A stretch of 56,191 nt of DNA, from NCBI GenBank assembly GCA_045598025.1, contig JAZLLH010000059.1, forward strand, positions 1 through 56,191, read 5' to 3'. This DNA is from Bacteroidales bacterium (GTDB lineage Bacteria; Bacteroidota; Bacteroidia; Bacteroidales; WCHB1-69). The notes under the pieces are model-generated. The model did no database searches. It had not been told where the DNA came from and was given only the letters and a program-made list of their open reading frames with translations. Positions 14,098 to 37,731 of the stretch are shown here, in pieces. The position numbers were made by a program, and so were the translations under genes. Numbering within the stretch: position 1 is the first letter of the stretch; each line of letters opens with the position of its first letter.

Positions 14098-14871
14098 TCA
14101 TTGAACGTTCTGGATTTGTTTGTCCGGACATTCTGTCTGCTCGGAGTCAGCAGTCAGTTTTCTCAGACAGACGGAAGCGCACCAGCAGCCGAAAAGGGCA
14201 GTGAGGTAGGATATGCTTCCGATGCCTTCCGACGCCGGGGCATCCGCAGGACGTGCATGCTTGGTCTCGTCGGAAAAAACGACTTCCACACCCTTGCTGA
14301 TGCCGGCTTTGCGAAGTCGGGTCCGTACAGCGGCAGCGAGACCGCATTGGTAGGTTTTGGAAATGTCGCAGCAGCGAATGCGGGAGGGATCCGTTTTTTC
14401 ACCGGCTCCCATTGCACTGACAACAGGCAGTCCTCTGCGGACGCAGCATTCCAGCAGTCTGACTTTGGGTCCCACACTGTCAATAGCATCGATGACATAG
14501 TCAAAAGCACCGGCCTGCAGCACTTCATCCATGCGTTCTTCATTCAAAAATTCAGTCAGTAGGCGAATGTCCGCTTCCGGATTGATGTCATGGAAGCGAT
14601 CACGGAGAATTTCGGTCTTATAGCATCCAACGGTGGATTGCAAAGCCGGCAGTTGACGGTTGCGGTTGGTGTCGTCAATCCGGTCACCGTCTGCGAGCGT
14701 CAGCGTCCCGACGCCTGCGCGGCAGCACATTTCGGCTGCATAGGCACCGACACCGCCTAAACCCACTATCAATACGTGAGTCCGATTCAGTTGTTCTGTC
14801 TTTTTCTCACCCAACAGCAGTTGGGTTCTTTCCTGCCAATGTTTCTGCATGTTTTGGTTTTTTGCTTGCAT
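14098..14871 (-). CDS. tcdA: tRNA threonylcarbamoyladenosine dehydratase (ThiF family)
   Basis: VGLGGVGAYAAE, DGDRIDDTNRNRQL, IDAIDS, SAMGAG..DP.RIR..DISKT..CGLA..VR. Confidence 0.85.
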   Translation of the reverse strand: MQAKNQNMQKHWQERTQLLLGEKKTEQLNRTHVLIVGLGGVGAYAAEMCCRAGVGTLTLADGDRIDDTNRNRQLPALQSTVGCYKTEILRDRFHDINPEADIRLLTEFLNEERMDEVLQAGAFDYVIDAIDSVGPKVRLLECCVRRGLPVVSAMGAGEKTDPSRIRCCDISKTYQCGLAAAVRTRLRKAGISKGVEVVFSDETKHARPADAPASEGIGSISYLTALFGCWCASVCLRKLTADSEQTECPDKQIQNVQ

Positions 14872-14928
14872 TTCTTCCTTTCAGGGAAGGCTTTTTCTTG
14901 TCTTTAGAGTGATAGCCGCTCTGTTTTT

Positions 14929-17190
14929 TCAGAATTTCATACCCCAGTGCAGACTCCACAGGAAGGGGAGCTGATAGATTTTTTCATTGGTTTTCCGGCT
15001 GACGTAGAAAATATTGGCGTAATTATACACATTGGTCGCACCGATGCCGATTTCGGAACGTACTTTGTCGGAATGAATGAAGGTCCGGTTGAGGTTGATG
15101 TCCAAACGGTGATAATCCGGCAACTGTCCCTTGTTGAGCTCATCCAGCACTATGCCGGGGGTTTCGTTGACAGGGATGATGTCGGAACCTATGTCTGTGA
15201 TGTTGTCTATGTTGGGATACCATGCCTTGGTCTGTGTAAAGGGGAAGCCGGAACCGTAGTTCCATCTCAGACTGGCTTCCCAACGGTCGTTGCGTCCCCA
15301 GTGGAAGGTGGATGTGAGATTCAGGTTGTGGCGGCGGTCGAAGTGGGTCCGGTATACAATATTGCCGTCGTTGCGGTGAACCCAGTTCAAGGAGTATGCC
15401 AGCCAGATGTAAAGCTTTTTGTGATCGTATTTGAGGGAAATGTCTCCTCCGTAGGAGTTTCCTGTTTCCAACATGAATTCATCGTCCTCTTCAAACATCT
15501 GGTAGCGGTTGATGTTGGTCAGACGTGAGAAGTTTTTGTAGTAGGCTTCTATATTGGCGATCAGGTACTCGGTGACATCGAATTCCATACCGCCAACCAC
15601 GTGCTGACTTTTTTGCAGGCTATTGCGGATATTCTTTCCGGAAAGGGTTTCGGATTCCGGTACGGTGAGAAATCCGTAGAAAAGGTTGACCACATCCTGA
15701 TCCGAGGTGGCCCCAATGATATTCTGGGAATACAATCCCCCTGCCATTTTGAAACGTAATCGCTTGCTTGCCAAATATTTAATAGCAAAACGGGGTTCCG
15801 GTGAGGTTGCGTTTTGGGATGCATAGTTGTCCAATCGGAAGCCGGGTTCAAAAATCCACTTGTTCAATATCCATTTGTATTTGATATACAAGGCAATTTC
15901 GCTGTTGAAACTTCTTTGTCCGCAATCCACTCCATAGGCATTGGTAAATTCATAATCCAGCCAGGTCCCGGTCAGTTCTATCCCATACTTGAAGGCGTTT
16001 TTTCCCAGCAGGTAGGTGAATCCTGTGGAGAAAGAGAAGTCTTTAATGCTGCTGTGTCTGCCGAAATCAGTATATTCATCCAGATTCATTCCGTAGTTGG
16101 AATAGGCGAGTGTGCCGTCAACAATCAGGTTGGACGAAGAAGGAAGAATCATGAAATTGCTTCCCATTCCCCAGGAATTCCATTGATATCGGGCGATTTC
16201 AGGATAGTTCACCTGATCTGTGAAACAAAATCCGAATACATTGATACGGCTGGATTCGGATGTTTCAAAAGTAAGCTTTCCGTATCCGTCAAAGTAGTTA
16301 TAGGGAAGTCCGTCTTCTCCCGCATAAGGGTATAGGACTTTGGAAGTCTGTTCCAGGTATGAACCCTTGAGTGAGGTTAGAAAGGATATGGAGGTTTTGT
16401 CTTTTTTTGTGATTTTTTTCAGAGGACCCTCCAGGAGCAGTTTGGCTCCGAAGGTGCTGATATCGAATTTTCCTCCGAAATCCTTTTTGTTTCCGCTTCG
16501 GGTTTCAATATCCATTATGGAAGAGGTGCGTCCACCGTATTCTGCATTGAATCCGGCTGTGAAGATTTCCGCATCTTTCAGAATGTCTGTGTCGAATACG
16601 GAGAACAGGCCGATGGAGTGAAAAGGATTGTAAATGGTCATGCCGTCCAGCATGACTTTGTTCTGTATGGGCGTGCCTCCCCTAACGTAGAGTTGTCCTC
16701 CCTGGTCACCTGTGGAAACAATGCCGGGCAGAATCTGCAGGTATTGGGCCAGATCCGGTATGCCTCCGATATTGGGAATCTGTGTGATTTGTTTGGGCAC
16801 AACATACTGAACGGAGGCTCTGACTTCGGTCAGGCTGATCATGCGGTCGGCCGTGACAGTGGTGCCTTCCAACTGATACACGGAAGGCGATAGCCGATAA
16901 GTGTTTTTGATGATTTCGTCTTTCTGTATGCTGATCTGCGTAATCAAAGAATCGTATCCCACACAAAATATACGCACCTTGTAGGTCCCGGCCGGAATTT
17001 TGACGATGGAAAAGTGTCCATTGTCATCAGAAATGCTTCCTACTCCCAATTCCGGCAGGTATATGGAACAGTAGGAAATAGGCTCCAGAGTGGTTTCTTC
17101 AATGATATTTCCTCTGAAAATTCCTCCCTGTGCCATCAGGATGGAATGGAAAAGCAAGCTTAGTGCGGTCAGGCAGAGGATTTTTTTCAT
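14929..17190 (-). CDS. TonB-dependent receptor with N-terminal carboxypeptidase-like domain
   Basis: Signal peptide LMA|QG; plug motif QILPGIV..GGQLYVRGG...VMLDGMTIYNPFH; barrel motifs FDRRHNLNL, LPDYHRLD; terminal Phe. ATG 17190 overlaps the rnc stop (ATGA). Confidence 0.88.
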   Translation of the reverse strand: MKKILCLTALSLLFHSILMAQGGIFRGNIIEETTLEPISYCSIYLPELGVGSISDDNGHFSIVKIPAGTYKVRIFCVGYDSLITQISIQKDEIIKNTYRLSPSVYQLEGTTVTADRMISLTEVRASVQYVVPKQITQIPNIGGIPDLAQYLQILPGIVSTGDQGGQLYVRGGTPIQNKVMLDGMTIYNPFHSIGLFSVFDTDILKDAEIFTAGFNAEYGGRTSSIMDIETRSGNKKDFGGKFDISTFGAKLLLEGPLKKITKKDKTSISFLTSLKGSYLEQTSKVLYPYAGEDGLPYNYFDGYGKLTFETSESSRINVFGFCFTDQVNYPEIARYQWNSWGMGSNFMILPSSSNLIVDGTLAYSNYGMNLDEYTDFGRHSSIKDFSFSTGFTYLLGKNAFKYGIELTGTWLDYEFTNAYGVDCGQRSFNSEIALYIKYKWILNKWIFEPGFRLDNYASQNATSPEPRFAIKYLASKRLRFKMAGGLYSQNIIGATSDQDVVNLFYGFLTVPESETLSGKNIRNSLQKSQHVVGGMEFDVTEYLIANIEAYYKNFSRLTNINRYQMFEEDDEFMLETGNSYGGDISLKYDHKKLYIWLAYSLNWVHRNDGNIVYRTHFDRRHNLNLTSTFHWGRNDRWEASLRWNYGSGFPFTQTKAWYPNIDNITDIGSDIIPVNETPGIVLDELNKGQLPDYHRLDINLNRTFIHSDKVRSEIGIGATNVYNYANIFYVSRKTNEKIYQLPFLWSLHWGMKF

Positions 17191-31233: not shown

Positions 31234-32139
31234 TTACGTCGTTTGTTTCCGGTAGTGTTTCGGTGAACATCCCACGTGTTCCTTGAAGTATTTCCCAAAG
31301 AAAGACTGACTGCAGAAATTCAATTCGTCGCTGATTTCCTGTATGGTTTTTCCTGTGTTTTTCAACAGGTTTTTTGACTCGTTGATTACTACTTCATTTA
31401 TCCAGTCGGAAGCATGGTATCCGCTGACTTCATGTACAATGGTTGAGAGATATTTAGGCGTGATATGGAGTCTTTCCGCATAGTATCGGACGCTTCTCTC
31501 CTGCTTGTAGTGGGAGGAAAGTTCCTGAAGAAAGGATTCTACATATTCATCTTTTCGGTTTTTTTCCCGTTTGGGCTGCTTTTCGATAAGACGGCTGGCA
31601 ATGTCACACAATTCGTAGGTCAACCCCAGGAGCATGTGCCGTATCACATCGTTATTGAAGGCACCCTTGGGAAGTATTCTCCTTTTTTCAAAAAAATCCT
31701 GGTATTCACGGATGATGCTGATTTCTTCCGGAGAAAGATGATTGCATGGGTTTTTGCGCAGAAATAGGAAAAAATTTAGGAATCCTTGAATCTGTATTAG
31801 TTGCATGGATATTTCAGGTGTGAGAATAATGCAACTGCAGTGGAAACCGTTGTTTTTTACCATGGAAATCCATTGGTCCGGTAGCAGAACCATCAAATCG
31901 TCCTTGCGGATATCATAATCCTTCAGATTGATGCGTAATGTGCAGGAACCGCTGGTGCAGCATCCGATGATGGTGACTTTGTTGACAGCCGTTTCTTCAA
32001 AATCGTGAATACCTCCGAAATCACTGACAATGACCAGATGGTCGTCAACGATTTCCGTTTCGATTTTGTCTCGGTGCGAGCGAAGTTCCTGTTGAACCGT
32101 CTGTATGTCCCAAAGTAGCGGCGTTTTCGATGTATTCAT
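31234..32139 (-). CDS. AraC family transcriptional regulator
   Basis: C-terminal YYAERLHITPKYLS...IQEISDELNF..QSFFGKYFK..G.SP..YR. Start moved to ATG 32139, 4 nt after the RND stop. Confidence 0.92.
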   Translation of the reverse strand: MNTSKTPLLWDIQTVQQELRSHRDKIETEIVDDHLVIVSDFGGIHDFEETAVNKVTIIGCCTSGSCTLRINLKDYDIRKDDLMVLLPDQWISMVKNNGFHCSCIILTPEISMQLIQIQGFLNFFLFLRKNPCNHLSPEEISIIREYQDFFEKRRILPKGAFNNDVIRHMLLGLTYELCDIASRLIEKQPKREKNRKDEYVESFLQELSSHYKQERSVRYYAERLHITPKYLSTIVHEVSGYHASDWINEVVINESKNLLKNTGKTIQEISDELNFCSQSFFGKYFKEHVGCSPKHYRKQTT

Positions 32140-32143
32140 TTTT

Positions 32144-35100
32144 TTATCGTATTTCTCTTCCGTTGGCCTGCAGGTATTGCTGATAGGCTGTCCGCAGGCT
32201 TGCTTTTGCTTCAGTGACGGCAGCACAGGCATTCTGCCATACGCTCTGTGCTTCCAGATATTCGGATAGACTGATCATGCCGGCTTCGTAATAATGCTTG
32301 CTTTCTTGCATGTTTTCAGCAGCTTGAGAACGGGACTCCTCCCGTATGGCGAGTTCATCGCAAAGTTTTTCCACTTCGTCGGCTGTCTGTCGCATTTGCA
32401 GAGACATCATTTCGCTCATTTCCAGCTTTTTGTTTTCTGCCATCTGAAGCTCAATCTTTTGTTTCCGGTACTGATGGGAGTTTCCCCACCAGGCACTCAG
32501 CGGTATTTTGGCTGTCGCGAAAAGGAAGGCGTTCCCCATGTCGGCTCCCAAGAGGTTGTAATAAAGCGCGGCTGCGCCGATTCCTATTTCGGGAAGGCTT
32601 TCTCCCAGTACCATTTTAGCTTTCAGTTCTTCGGCTTTTACATTCAGATCCAGCAATTTATATTCGTTGCGCAGTCTCAGGGATTCATCCAGGTCAAAAT
32701 CTGTTTTCAGCATTTCCGGATGTATATCCAGAGAATCTGTGAGGACAATGCTGTCCTGATATGGTATACCGATACTTTGACAGAGTGCCATGGTCGCCAG
32801 GCGAATCCCGTTTTCCAAGGTATTTCCGGCGCTTCGGATTTCGTTGCGTTTCAGTTGTACTTTGAGTTTGTCCGTCTTTGTGGCTACGCCGGCTTCGTAT
32901 GCGGCATCCACATCGCGTGACAGAGTGTCGAGCAGGGTGGACAGGCTGCGGATAATCTGTCGCTTTTCTGTCAGCGAAACGATCAGCCAATAATTCTGTT
33001 CCACTTTGATCAGGGCATTCTGTCCGGACATATTCTGCTGGCATTCGGCTGCCTCTACACCGATTTGGGCCAGGCGGTTGCCGTTGATGATGCGTCCGCC
33101 AGCAAAAATTGGCTGAATGGCGGTAAGCATGGCAGTCGCACCTTGATCAAGAGCTTTGATGTCGACCTCGTAGGAAAAGTCTTTTGCATAGGCAGCGAAG
33201 TCGCGCAGGTCAACATTCAGCATTTTCAGAACTGCGCCCAATTGCGAATTTTCCAAATCTGCCACCAGACTGTTCAAATCGTTGTCTTTATATTTGATTT
33301 TCAAATCAATATCTGCGTTATCCCTTTCGGAATTCGCATCCAGTAACGGACTGGCTGTCTGGAAGGCCAAAGCGGAGGCACTTATAGTGGGGAAGTAGCG
33401 GGTAAAGGCGTATTTTTTTGTTTCTTTGGCCGATTCTATGGCTAATTGGCTGTTTTTTACATCATAGTGATTGCGCAATGCCAGGCTGCGGCAACTGTCC
33501 AAAGAGAGGCGGAGAGGTTGCTGCGCATAGGAGGCAGAAGGCACACACAGGCAGCATCCGACGAGAAGTGCTCCCAAAGCACGGTTCGTTTTGCGGCGAT
33601 TGATTTTTTCATTTTTCTCGAAAATTTTCCAATAAGCGATGGGCAGCACGGTCACAATCAGAATGAAGGAGAACAGCATTCCGAAGCAGATGATGATACC
33701 CATGGGCATCCATAAAGTGCTGCGGCTGATGATCATGGGAATGACTCCGGCTGCAGCGCAGGCACATGTGAGGAAAATAGGCCGCATTCTCCGTTTCCCG
33801 GCTTCGAGTGCGGCTTCCTTTACCGACATGCCTTCCCGTATGCGTTCTTCTGCATATTGGAACATAATGATGGCGTTGCGGACTACAATGCCGACCAGGC
33901 TCACTATTCCCAGTATGGAGGTAATGCCGAAGTCTGTGTGGAAAATTTTCAGTCCGATGACGGCTCCCAACAGGCAGAGCAGGGTAGAAGCCAGTGAAAG
34001 AAGTGCCAGACTGATTTTTTTCAATGCGTATACCAGACAGAAGAAAATGATCAGAATCATCAGAATGAAACCGGAAATCAGTTCAGGGCGCAGTTCGTTG
34101 TTGGTTTCTTCCAGACCTCCGTAAGAAAATTCCATTCCTTCTGGCAGAATGTTGGAGAATTCTTTCCGCATATAGTGTTTGATCCGTTTCATTACGACGG
34201 GCTGGCTTTGTCCATAGCGCAGGTCGGCACTGACGGTGATGCAGTGTACGCCGTTCCGGCGGACAATCTGTACGGGTTCCCATACCGGAGTAACGCTCGC
34301 AACCTGGCTGAGAGGCACCCATACACCCGGCAGCAGGGTGGGTACGAGTTCTTCCTTTAGGGATGCAATGTTTTGGTTACTGTCGCGTCCGGTTTTCAGT
34401 GTGACAGGAATGGCGTAGTCGTCTTCCCAAAGGGTAGTCAGAGGTGTCCCTCCGTATTGGGAGGCCAGGCTCAGACCCAATGTGGTTTGGGTGATACCCA
34501 GGCGGGAAGCCTCAATCGGATCCATCCGAACGTTGGCATAGGTTTGAAAACCTTCAAAATCCGTGTGTATCCAGGATAGCCGGTCATCCATGGTGTGAAG
34601 GAAACGGGTCAGGGTGTCGGCATAATCCTTCAAAGTGGCGATATCGTCCCCTTTCAAGCGGATTTCAATGGCATTTTTGGCTGATTGATAGTCCAGGTGT
34701 TTGAAGCGCAGCAATGCATTGGGGAAATGATGTTCCAAGGAGTCCGAGTATTTGGACAAAATCCTTTCGGTGGCTTGTACGGAGCGGGTGTTGACAATAA
34801 ATTGGGCATAATTTTTACCGGGCAGGCTAGGGGCATATGTAATCATGAAACGGGGAGATCCGCTGCCGTAAAAGGCGGTGATGGCTTCCACGTCCTTGTC
34901 TTTTTTCAATATGGATTCCAGACTGTCGCAGACCGAGATGGTCTGTTGTAGGGAACTGCCTTGCGGCAGACGTATTTCCAGAGCGAAACTGTCCCGTTCT
35001 GCCTGCGGCATCATCTGAATATTGGTATGGAAGAGAAACATCCAAACAGCAAGAAAGATGGTTCCAATGCCTAAACACAGCGTCAGGAAAGGGTGTCTGA

Positions 35101-36694
35101 AGCATTTCTCGAGTATCCATTCGTATCCTCCCTGCAGCAGTTTGAAAAATTGGTTTTGGGCGCGGACGGCTCTGGAAATTTTTTCTTCCTCCACAGGCAT
35201 GGGACGGATGAATCTGGCGGCCCAGTACGGAATCAGCAGTACGGCTACCAAAAGTGAAATCAGCAGAGCAAAGGTAAAAGGCCAGGGAAAATGCTGGACA
35301 AATTCGCCTATGGGTCCTGTCATGGTGACCATGAAGGGGAAAAAGGCCAGTGCCATGGCCAGAGTGGCCACGAGTAGCGGCTCGAAGTAGGTGTCGGCAC
35401 TCTGTATGGCGGCTTCCTTGGGAGACATGCCATGCTCCGTATTGTGGATGAATCCGTCTATGATCACAATGGCATTGTCTACAATCATTCCCAATACCAC
35501 AATCAGAGAGGCCAGAGTGACCGTATTGATTTCCATTTTGAAGGCATACATCAATGCCCAGGTGATAGTGATAGTGACGGGAATGCTGGATGCCGTGACC
35601 ATAGCGGATCGGAAGGGAAACAGCATCAGCATGACGAAAATGACAACGAGGACGGCAACCAGTAAATCGCGCAGGAAGGAATACACCGACGAACTCACTA
35701 CTTTGGGAAGGTCGGTAATGCGGTAAAGCCGAACATCGTCCGGAAGAGTGCTCTGGAATGCGGCCAGCCGTTTTTCAATCTGTTTCCCGAATGTGACAAT
35801 GTTGTTGCCGGACTGCATTTCTACGGAAAGGACCAGCGCGTTTTCTCCGTCTTTGCGTATGAAGGACGAAGGATCTTCATATTGCCGGACGATTTGAGCC
35901 ACGTCCTTCAGCCGGATGATACGTCCCATGGGATCTGAGTATACAATCTGTTCTCCGATTTCTTTCTCATTGCTCAGAGGACTTTCGATGTGTATGGGAA
36001 TAATGTTGTTTTCGCTTTTCAGCGTACCTCCGGTAGGAATGAGCCCCTGTGTGAAAAGTTCTGCCATCAGCGTTTTGTTGCTGATACCGTAGGAGGCCAG
36101 TTTTTCCTGATCAATAATGACATTGATTTCTTCTTTCTGTTCACCATATACTTTGATGTTTCCCACCGCCTTGACCGTGCGCAGTTGGTCGCACAATCCA
36201 TCCATATAGCGGTGCAACTCTTTGTAGGTCTTGTCTTTGGATTGAATGGTAATCAGCAGGGAGGAGGTGTTTCCGAAATCGTCATTTACGACAACGGCCA
36301 ATACGCCCGAAGGCAGTTTGGATTTGAAGTCTTTGAGCCCGTGCCGTATTTTGGACCATACTTCGGTTTTGTCGTTCACGCTTTTTTCCAGAGAAACGAA
36401 AATATAGACAATACCATTCTGTGAATAGGAATATGTTTTCTCCTTGCAGACTTCGGGATAGGTAAAGAGAAAGTTTTCCAAGGGTTTGGTTACCTGGAAT
36501 TCCATTTCTTCCGGAGTGGCTCCCGGGTATGCAGCTCCTACGATTCCTTCTCTCAGGGTGAATTCCGGGAATTCCTGTTTGTTCATACCAATCAGTCCGT
36601 AAATGCCGTATGCGACCATCAGCCCGACAACAAGGTACACTATGTTCCGTGAACGCATCACGGATTCCACTATGCCTGATTTTTTCTGTTTCAT
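32144..36694 (-). CDS. RND efflux permease (AcrB-like, ~aa 1-1025) fused to a TolC-family outer-membrane factor (~aa 1058-1516)
   Basis: EFPEFT, VNDDFG, GMIVDNAIV, GIVVRNAI, RMRPIFLT; then a signal-peptide-like linker and a TolC pattern LSLDSC..LA..N, YFPTISAS, QPIFAGG, YEAGM...EYLEAQ. One uninterrupted ORF. Confidence 0.9.
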   Translation of the reverse strand: MKQKKSGIVESVMRSRNIVYLVVGLMVAYGIYGLIGMNKQEFPEFTLREGIVGAAYPGATPEEMEFQVTKPLENFLFTYPEVCKEKTYSYSQNGIVYIFVSLEKSVNDKTEVWSKIRHGLKDFKSKLPSGVLAVVVNDDFGNTSSLLITIQSKDKTYKELHRYMDGLCDQLRTVKAVGNIKVYGEQKEEINVIIDQEKLASYGISNKTLMAELFTQGLIPTGGTLKSENNIIPIHIESPLSNEKEIGEQIVYSDPMGRIIRLKDVAQIVRQYEDPSSFIRKDGENALVLSVEMQSGNNIVTFGKQIEKRLAAFQSTLPDDVRLYRITDLPKVVSSSVYSFLRDLLVAVLVVIFVMLMLFPFRSAMVTASSIPVTITITWALMYAFKMEINTVTLASLIVVLGMIVDNAIVIIDGFIHNTEHGMSPKEAAIQSADTYFEPLLVATLAMALAFFPFMVTMTGPIGEFVQHFPWPFTFALLISLLVAVLLIPYWAARFIRPMPVEEEKISRAVRAQNQFFKLLQGGYEWILEKCFRHPFLTLCLGIGTIFLAVWMFLFHTNIQMMPQAERDSFALEIRLPQGSSLQQTISVCDSLESILKKDKDVEAITAFYGSGSPRFMITYAPSLPGKNYAQFIVNTRSVQATERILSKYSDSLEHHFPNALLRFKHLDYQSAKNAIEIRLKGDDIATLKDYADTLTRFLHTMDDRLSWIHTDFEGFQTYANVRMDPIEASRLGITQTTLGLSLASQYGGTPLTTLWEDDYAIPVTLKTGRDSNQNIASLKEELVPTLLPGVWVPLSQVASVTPVWEPVQIVRRNGVHCITVSADLRYGQSQPVVMKRIKHYMRKEFSNILPEGMEFSYGGLEETNNELRPELISGFILMILIIFFCLVYALKKISLALLSLASTLLCLLGAVIGLKIFHTDFGITSILGIVSLVGIVVRNAIIMFQYAEERIREGMSVKEAALEAGKRRMRPIFLTCACAAAGVIPMIISRSTLWMPMGIIICFGMLFSFILIVTVLPIAYWKIFEKNEKINRRKTNRALGALLVGCCLCVPSASYAQQPLRLSLDSCRSLALRNHYDVKNSQLAIESAKETKKYAFTRYFPTISASALAFQTASPLLDANSERDNADIDLKIKYKDNDLNSLVADLENSQLGAVLKMLNVDLRDFAAYAKDFSYEVDIKALDQGATAMLTAIQPIFAGGRIINGNRLAQIGVEAAECQQNMSGQNALIKVEQNYWLIVSLTEKRQIIRSLSTLLDTLSRDVDAAYEAGVATKTDKLKVQLKRNEIRSAGNTLENGIRLATMALCQSIGIPYQDSIVLTDSLDIHPEMLKTDFDLDESLRLRNEYKLLDLNVKAEELKAKMVLGESLPEIGIGAAALYYNLLGADMGNAFLFATAKIPLSAWWGNSHQYRKQKIELQMAENKKLEMSEMMSLQMRQTADEVEKLCDELAIREESRSQAAENMQESKHYYEAGMISLSEYLEAQSVWQNACAAVTEAKASLRTAYQQYLQANGREIR

Positions 36695-36705: not shown

Positions 36706-37731
36706 CTACTGGATTTTGATTTGGGTATCCTCACATACTTTCGGTGCACCTTCCGTGATTACCAGGTCGCCATCCTGCAATCCTTCGATGATGCGTACTC
36801 CGTTTTCAGTGAATCCTTCCGTGCGAATGTAAGCTTTGTGTGCTTTCCCGTTCTGGCAAATCCATACGAACTCGCGTCCGTCATTGCTTATCTGAACAGC
36901 CTGCATGGGAATGTCGTATCCGGCAGTAGTGTCGGAAGCAGAGTAAATACTTACGCGACATACCATGCCGGGAAGCAGTTTCTGGTCAGGTTCCAGAATG
37001 CGTAGGCTGACGGGGTAGGCGTGGGAGAGAGGGTCTGCCACGACACCGATTTCTGTTATTTCAGCATCAAATGATGCCTGCAGTGCATTTACCTGTACTT
37101 TGGCTTTCTGGCCGATGCGAAGCGAGGCTATCTCGTTTTCGGGGATATGGGTCTGTACGGAAATCCGCCCCATGTCCAGCAATTGCATGACCGATTGGAA
37201 TGGCATGACGTTCATTCCGGCTTCCACATTCATGTTTCCGATAGTGCCGCTCTGTGGAGCATACATTTTGCAGTTTTCAAGGCTTTTTTTGCAGATGTCC
37301 GCCATGGAGCGGGCCTGATTCAGCTGGGTCTGTATTTCCACCCATTTGACTTCGGGGAGACTCCCTTTCTTATAAATGCTTTCAGCGCGACGATATCCGT
37401 CTTCAGCTTGATCCAATGTAACTTTTGCTGCGTTGTAGGCATTCAGAGCAGTCCTGTTGTCCAATTCGGCCAGCAATTGACCCTTCTGTACTTTCTGGCC
37501 TTCCCTGACATGAATACAGCGGATACAACCTCCGCTTTCAAAACTGAGAACAATGGATTTATCGGCCGAAATGGTGCCGACGTAACTGCTGTTGCTTCCC
37601 ATGGTATCGGTGACGACTTCCGTTACCCGGACGGGAATGACAACATCCTGTGATGATTTTCTGATTTCTTTGCAGCTTCCCAACAATAAAGTTGATACTG
37701 CCAGTCCGAATAAAAACTTTTTCATATACAA
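36706..37731 (-). CDS. RND efflux periplasmic adaptor (membrane fusion protein), lipoprotein
   Basis: Lipobox LGSC; LSFESGG.I..I.V.EGQ.V.KGQLLA.LD; APQSG.I; LLPGM; GL..GD.VITEG. Confidence 0.92.
   Translation of the reverse strand: MYMKKFLFGLAVSTLLLGSCKEIRKSSQDVVIPVRVTEVVTDTMGSNSSYVGTISADKSIVLSFESGGCIRCIHVREGQKVQKGQLLAELDNRTALNAYNAAKVTLDQAEDGYRRAESIYKKGSLPEVKWVEIQTQLNQARSMADICKKSLENCKMYAPQSGTIGNMNVEAGMNVMPFQSVMQLLDMGRISVQTHIPENEIASLRIGQKAKVQVNALQASFDAEITEIGVVADPLSHAYPVSLRILEPDQKLLPGMVCRVSIYSASDTTAGYDIPMQAVQISNDGREFVWICQNGKAHKAYIRTEGFTENGVRIIEGLQDGDLVITEGAPKVCEDTQIKIQ

Follow-up and report, generated by a model that had tools for sequence, protein, structure and literature searches.

How can a single open reading frame (ORF) supply both the inner-membrane transporter and the outer-membrane channel of an efflux pump? 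The question is raised by a gene on contig JAZLLH010000059.1 (assembly GCA_045598025.1), a stretch of 56,191 nucleotides that we call the window. It belongs to a 74-contig metagenome-assembled genome (MAG) of a rumen or gut Bacteroidales bacterium. The minus strand from 32144 to 36694 is one ORF of 1516 codons with no internal stops, in which an RND permease is followed by a TolC-like outer-membrane factor (OMF). An earlier note, made by reading the sequence, had placed the two in one frame and had suggested that they are joined by a signal peptide with n-, h- and c-regions ending PSASYA|Q, where the bar marks the predicted cut. The residues match that description exactly. From the comparisons described below we think it likely that the gene specifies a precursor polyprotein with an internal signal peptide cleavable by signal peptidase I. 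Its parts are as follows.

32144 to 36694, minus strand: the fusion ORF, with RND permease, predicted internal signal peptide and OMF channel; precursor of 170 kDa
33620 to 36694, minus strand: RND permease domain, residues 1-1025, from the PF00873 match; the twelfth transmembrane helix (TM12) ends ...LPIAYWKIF
33581 to 33619, minus strand: predicted cytoplasmic tail and n-region EKNEKINRRKTNR, residues 1026-1038, net positive, read from the sequence
33542 to 33580, minus strand: predicted h-region ALGALLVGCCLCV, residues 1039-1051, 13 residues, read from the sequence
33524 to 33541, minus strand: predicted c-region PSASYA, residues 1052-1057, with Pro at −6, Ser at −3 and Ala at −1, read from the sequence
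32147 to 33523, minus strand: predicted mature TolC-type OMF, residues 1058-1516, 459 residues and 51.4 kDa, N-terminus QQPLRLSLDSCR, from Pfam OEP, an AlphaFold2 (AF2) model and Foldseek

The order at the junction is ...LPIAYWKIF(1025) / EKNEKINRRKTNR / ALGALLVGCCLCV / PSASYA|QQPLRLSLDSC. Signal peptidase I is predicted to cut between Ala1057 (codon 33524-33526) and Gln1058 (codon 33521-33523), which puts the site between bases 33524 and 33523; the stop codon of the fusion is 32144-32146. The h-region holds an incidental lipobox-like LVGC that includes Cys1047. In the Bacteroidota, substrates of signal peptidase I are marked by Gln at +1, the 'Q-rule' (PMC5837995). The segment RRKTNR / ALGALLVGCCLCV / PSASYA|Q has the anatomy of such a signal, but it does not stand at the N-terminus of the precursor; it begins at residue 1026, past 12 transmembrane helices.

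Both flanking parts are complete. Pfam ACR_tran (PF00873) matches residues 14-1023 at model positions 7-1019 of 1021 with E = 2.4e-162, and the permease is therefore full-length. Its score with NCBIfam RND_permease_2 is 458 bits, which lies under the cut-off of that subfamily and marks it as a divergent member. At the putative sites of the charged proton-relay residues, the motifs GMIVDNAIV (residues 402-410, 35465-35491, TM4) and GIVVRNAI (residues 935-942, 33866-33889, TM10) show D-N and R, where AcrB-type pumps have D-D and K. On the channel side Pfam OEP is matched in two stretches as two tandem repeats, and an OEP search of the whole genome gave two matches in the fusion frame, at 32768-33502 and 32162-32686. 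AF2 models the OMF as a complete TolC-type protomer (pLDDT 83), whose four beta-strands span model residues 80-89, 161-174, 346-358 and 361-373. Its first structured element lies three residues past the predicted cut (Gln1058). Foldseek matched the model to TolC, OprM, CmeC and CusC over ~460 columns, with E about 1e-15 and target-normalised TM-scores of 0.69-0.78. A single-sequence phmmer search of the PDB with the OMF part gave no match at E ≤ 0.01. The complete TolC-like domain of ~459 residues that had been proposed to start at 33523 is thus borne out, by the position of the Gln1058 codon and by the full fold seen with AF2 and Foldseek.

The subfamily to which the window belongs has an insert of ~60 residues between the first two beta-strands of the OMF (33050-33240, about residues 1118-1181). 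The model is of low confidence there, with pLDDT < 50 at model residues 95-113 and 146-158, and the insert presumably forms a larger surface loop. In other subfamilies its place is taken by the short motif GGNLPVYDGNPANL.

A fused frame could arise in an assembly where there are two genes in reality, for example from an indel in the A5 and A6 runs at 33600-33612. The homopolymer runs, an out-of-frame ATG at the junction and the 74 contigs of the MAG all leave room for such an error. Yet fused homologs of ~1480 residues number in the hundreds. When the junction region was used as the query, 115 of the 120 top matches were longer than 1400 residues and carried Pfam ACR_tran plus OEP, at 37-70% identity. 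Among cultured bacteria, Maribellus comscasis (WP_246222749.1) and M. maritimus (WP_238768127.1) carry the fusion. Independent assemblies from ENA, Logan and NCBI supplied the closest homologs, and these have the same operon of membrane fusion protein (MFP), fusion and AraC-type regulator. We also scanned loci in named genomes, using an alignment of 5 sequences and covering one OMF clade; of its 79 loci 60 are fused, some of them in records submitted as whole MAG chromosomes. Fused and in-frame split loci were told apart by re-translating every locus, because reported open frames of ~1500 residues were misleading (G006 and G244 have an in-frame stop). The window protein aligns residue for residue with fused homologs across the A-rich junction (FEKNEKINRRK against FEENEKINQRK), and at the site of the A runs the homologs have AAC GAA, with neither homopolymer nor out-of-frame ATG. 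An indel artefact is therefore very unlikely. The earlier note had raised the chance of a stop at the junction, but the frame is open in homologs and the OMF, 66% identical, contains no stops. The window moreover falls within a well-supported clade of fused genes, described below. We consider an assembly or sequencing error exceedingly improbable, and by these sequence comparisons the fused frame is confirmed as genuine.

The out-of-frame ATG lies between the A5 and A6 runs on the minus strand (gagaaaaATGaaaaaatc) and resembles the ATGA overlaps of split relatives. We considered this ATG with its A-run as the fossil of an ATGA stop/start overlap or as a frameshift site, and rejected both, given that close homologs have a different sequence there and align through. 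The ATG is probably incidental.

If the junction is a signal peptide it should be conserved as one, and this was examined in 107 fused homologs, among which the junction cannot be aligned by sequence. Gln occupies +1 in 102 of them, and −1 is Ala in 97, Ser in 7 and Gly in 3. Position −3 is nearly always small or aliphatic (L, A, V, S, G or T). The uncharged run has a median length of 16 residues (range 12-26), and the tail with its n-region a median net charge of +3. Against its eight closest fused homologs the window protein is 91% identical in TM12, 79% in the RND part, 66% in the OMF and 44% in the tail. Identity drops to 27% in the h- and c-region stretch (residues 1039-1055), while −1 and +1 are 100% identical. 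Drift of this stretch next to a fixed A|Q indicates evolution as a signal peptide, and neither as a structural thirteenth helix nor as a functionless linker. The earlier note had described a thirteenth transmembrane segment that acts as an internal signal cleaved by signal peptidase I. Cleavage is supported by the comparison, but the thirteenth helix has to be given up, as the segment is a signal core of 13 residues and not a true transmembrane helix.

Signals of this kind are common in the genome, which encodes a signal peptidase I and has 102 N-terminal signal peptides ending (A/G/S)|Q. The junction had been likened to eight N-terminal signal peptides in the window. The shared pattern is real, but the number was not exactly reproduced, a crude scan giving about six that end (A/S)|Q, with eight being plausible. 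A plant-type glutaminyl cyclase (PF05096) is absent from the genome; the animal-type enzyme was not searched for.

The position of the junction relative to the channel can be compared with OMFs that are encoded separately. The genome carries ordinary split RND/OMF pairs as well, and its four complete stand-alone OMFs have signal peptides ending ...ANA|Q, ...VSA|Q, ...AGA|Q and ...AGA|Q. Gln is found at the predicted +1 of the N-terminal signal peptide in 35 of 36 split or stand-alone OMFs, and where these can be aligned the site lies mostly 1-6 residues before the LSLDSC/YTLEQC helix motif. In the fused proteins the internal A|Q lies 2-4 residues before the first-helix motif in 92 of 107 cases. 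Since the register is shared, a cut of the fused chain at A|Q would give the same mature N-terminus as that made from separate genes. The 'OM Efflux protein' Tanf_07615 of Tannerella forsythia provides an experimental counterpart. It has the signal peptide MKQFIFLWMAVILPFCAMA/Q, and the peptide pyroGlu-QEVLTLDQCR was observed (PMC5837995, supplement), so that both cleavage and pyroglutamate were seen by mass spectrometry for this stand-alone protein (PMC5837995). Tanf_07615 and the fusion share an A|Q followed by 2-3 residues and then LTLDQC or LSLDSC. They differ in that the signal of Tanf_07615 is N-terminal on a separate product, whereas here it occupies residues 1026-1057 of a longer chain. 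The supplement of PMC5837995 contains no fused RND entry, only the stand-alone OM efflux protein.

Some fused homologs, at loci L112 and L123 in named Bacteroidota MAGs, have a long low-complexity spacer rich in Pro and Gln (e.g. QTPTPNPQSPIPNPQ...) between A|Q and the first OMF helix.

The LVGC motif points to another way of releasing the channel. Lgt and signal peptidase II might act at L-V-G-C(1047), producing a lipidated OMF of residues 1047-1516 (52.5 kDa) similar to those of the OprM or NodT type. Lipoproteins are frequent among proteobacterial OMFs. LVGC agrees with the lipobox consensus and is preceded by a hydrophobic stretch of 8 residues and a basic n-region, and by eye a lipobox-like motif is found in 4 of the 10 closest homologs. 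However, such a motif is present in only 5 of the 107 fused homologs, in which A|Q is nearly universal. It also occurs incidentally in signals of the A|Q type: the signal peptides of this type in the genome contain Cys in 72 of 102 cases and an incidental lipobox in 7 of 102, one example being MMKRIGLSLLFIAACLFGTTSYA|Q, with the same SYA|Q ending. In most lipoprotein-like signals of the genome the uncharged run stops at the Cys or soon after it, whereas here the run continues for ten residues past the Cys and leads to a canonical site for signal peptidase I. The lipoprotein route is thus improbable in our view, and were it used it would still release the channel.

Alternatively the chain might not be cut. 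The hydrophobic segment would then be a permanent thirteenth anchor, tethering the OMF to the RND permease in a non-functional protein or a novel architecture. Fused domains are by default taken to stay joined. Against this, the core has only 13 hydrophobic residues and drifts freely (27% identity with the c-region included, compared with 91% for TM12), and the invariant −1 Ala and +1 Gln would lack a reason to persist. The OMF also retains the full TolC fold with its beta-barrel strands and 66% conservation. Geometry leads to the same view. In TolC the N-terminus is located at the equator of the periplasmic barrel, >100 Å from the inner membrane. Judging from the model and this geometry, the linker would have at most about nine residues, too short to reach the outer membrane from the inner membrane, so an uncut chain with its barrel in the outer membrane should not exist. 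An uncut chain appears quite improbable.

A further possibility is that the OMF is translated separately from an internal start, such as the TTG of Leu1041, and that the open junction reflects a stop lost without consequence. There is indeed an in-frame TTG where the h-region begins, a Met is found near the start of the signal peptide in 23 of the 107 fused homologs, and split relatives often have an in-frame stop and start 0-39 nt apart. But in the close homologs P0002 and P0005 the junction contains no in-frame codon that could serve as a start (ATG, GTG or TTG), and homologs differ at the aligned position, which can be M, I, V, A or L. A conserved internal start is therefore lacking. Initiation at Leu1041 would leave the signal peptide without its basic n-region, and ribosomes in the RND frame would still read into the OMF, so that the fused chain would be made regardless. 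We judge an internal start to be very improbable.

Could a signal-like module occur at this point by chance? We applied a crude detector that requires a basic stretch, an uncharged run of 12-26 residues with a hydrophobic core, a permissive −3, a small −1 and Gln at +1. Over the 586,321 ORF residues of the genome it gave 90 N-terminal matches and 9 'internal' ones, so a chance module exactly at the domain boundary is improbable, conservation aside. Four of the other eight internal matches were read fully, and comprised two transmembrane helices of transporters, one mis-called start and one BatB::BatC-like fusion. A fifth, seen in its printed context, also looks like a mis-called start.

The BatB::BatC-like case is an ORF of 594 residues at 14647-16429 on the plus strand of contig C17, with BatA_N, VWA, a membrane helix, TPR repeats and a poly-Gln tail in that order. 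Near residue 368 it has an internal signal-peptide-like module, WLNKK VFCVLFLLSFLPAVSA|QTSSEW. It looks like a BatB::BatC-type fusion with an internal signal peptide, or a second gene started at TTG.

The path of the chain through the envelope, where it is cut and what becomes of the two products can be inferred as follows. RND permeases are N-in/C-in, with a cytoplasmic C-terminus. The RND part of the 170-kDa precursor would insert co-translationally into the inner membrane in this orientation, and because its C-terminus would be cytoplasmic the next hydrophobic segment would insert N-in/C-out. The basic tail and 13-residue core would thus act as a Sec signal peptide, threading the 459-residue channel into the periplasm. 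We think it very likely that the chain is cut at the junction, and A1057|Q1058 is probably the exact site used by signal peptidase I. The cut after Ala1057 (PSASYA|QQ) would give products of 118.7 and 51.4 kDa. The new N-terminal Gln would probably be cyclised to pyroglutamate, as on other exported proteins of the Bacteroidota. The free OMF of 51 kDa would fold into the outer membrane and trimerise, and the RND permease (~119 kDa) would keep a tail of 32 residues with the uncleaved core of the signal peptide, a short hydrophobic tail at its C-terminus. RND and OMF each function as trimers, and the two products would combine with the MFP lipoprotein, encoded by its own gene, into a normal tripartite efflux pump.

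Several points weigh on the other side. In the open-access literature covered we found no experiment showing two products from any fused member. The LVGC motif at Cys1047 could divert the chain to signal peptidase II, and the in-frame TTG of Leu1041 could in principle start a separate OMF. Finally, fusion and fission are recurrent, with at least 6 changes, and being fused may in itself bring no benefit.

Across 301 genomes of the same order we re-translated 50 loci, of which 17 are fused. In 13 others the OMF is a separate gene read in a different frame, often with stop and start overlapping as ATGA. A further four or five have two genes in the same frame, with 0-39 nt from stop to ATG. Fusion from such arrangements is easy, requiring a point mutation of the stop in the in-frame case or a 1-nt indel at an ATGA overlap. 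In a maximum-likelihood tree of 56 OMF domains the window is placed in a fused-only clade of seven rows with 100% support, which is nested within a clade of 22 rows containing nine split genes. A first tree of 53 rows had two fused groups without split members, of 11 and 15 rows, with SH-aLRT values of 92 and 80 that are below the threshold of 95 for strong support. The distribution of fused and split states needs 8 changes, at least 6 of them forced by well-supported branches, and a single fused clade is rejected by the approximately unbiased test (p = 0.0002). Persistence of the fusions across many families implies that the fused product works, and repeated gain or loss suggests that fusion is perhaps close to neutral; with reversals this frequent, a strong advantage should not be taken for granted.

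A stronger proposal is that the fusion is a selected biogenesis device. It would deliver one channel protomer per RND protomer into the periplasm, where that RND protomer itself inserts, at a strict 1:1 ratio and for assembly in cis, with the retained signal as a functional thirteenth segment (e.g. for contacts with the trimer or adaptor), and the same logic might extend more widely in the genome, as in the BatB::BatC-like ORF on C17. We find this doubtful. That fusion fixes a 1:1 stoichiometry of pump and channel, as the earlier note proposed, is something that might be inferred.

How does the gene compare with known systems? The mfp-rnd-omf pumps (AcrAB-TolC, MexAB-OprM and BmeABC of Bacteroides) have the same three components, the same ACR_tran and OEP families and the same gene order. 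The differences are that here RND and OMF share one frame, the OMF lacks a start codon of its own, and the signal peptide is internal, past 12 helices. The parts are those of an ordinary pump of the AcrAB-TolC/BmeABC type; what differs is the gene architecture, and hence the route of biogenesis. We know of no such route in textbook accounts of tripartite efflux pumps, and no description of RND-OMF fusions or their processing was found in the open-access literature, where absence is not proof. Its sequence places the gene in a large and as yet uncharacterised class that encodes RND::OMF precursors. Several of these are named 'multidrug efflux pump subunit AcrB/outer membrane protein TolC' by JGI, and NCBI calls them only 'efflux RND transporter permease subunit'. 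The NCBI label hides the exit channel, so that counts of TolC-like channels in the Bacteroidota are too low.

The closest precedent known to us is FbcH of Bradyrhizobium japonicum, the cytochrome b-c1 precursor, a chain reportedly found by Thony-Meyer, James and Hennecke in 1991 to be cut into two subunits. There too a polytopic inner-membrane protein reportedly leads, within one chain, into an internal signal and then an exported subunit of the complex to which both belong. The domain order and positive tail of the fusion, taken with the known topology of RND permeases, fit this layout, in which a polytopic part with a cytoplasmic end precedes a signal peptide and the partner to be exported. 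Both products of FbcH are reportedly at the inner membrane, however, whereas here the second is predicted to cross the periplasm into the outer membrane. Internal signal peptides that set topology and mark signal-peptidase cuts are also found in viral glycoprotein polyproteins, which host signal peptidase cleaves (on bunyaviruses, see PMC7926653). Those are viral and rely on the eukaryotic signal peptidase complex of the endoplasmic reticulum, whereas this is a cellular bacterial gene with a predicted LepB-type signal peptidase I. If the cut is made as proposed, the gene would encode a natural cellular polyprotein whose halves end in two different membranes. The family would then offer a simple natural system for the action of signal peptidase I on a signal peptide placed past 12 membrane helices, and allow one to ask whether co-synthesis aids the assembly of trans-envelope machines.

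The neighbours of the fusion are as follows.

36706 to 37731, minus strand: periplasmic adaptor (MFP) gene, first in the operon, with lipoprotein signal MKKFLFGLAVSTLLLGS|C, from the ORF list
31234 to 32139, minus strand: regulator of the AraC/HTH_18 type, directly 3' of the fusion, from the ORF list and homologs

In close homologs the same gene, with RND-MFP Pfam domains, stands directly 5' of the fusion. The operon had been said to lack a separate tolC, and this holds: the order is MFP lipoprotein, fusion and AraC-type regulator. The longest ORF of the regulator, 31234-32232, overlaps the 3' end of the fusion by 89 nt. In two close homologs the HTH_18 gene, of 307-309 residues, begins 4-5 nt past the stop of the fusion, and the Met at 32139 is therefore the probable start here, rather than that at 32232.

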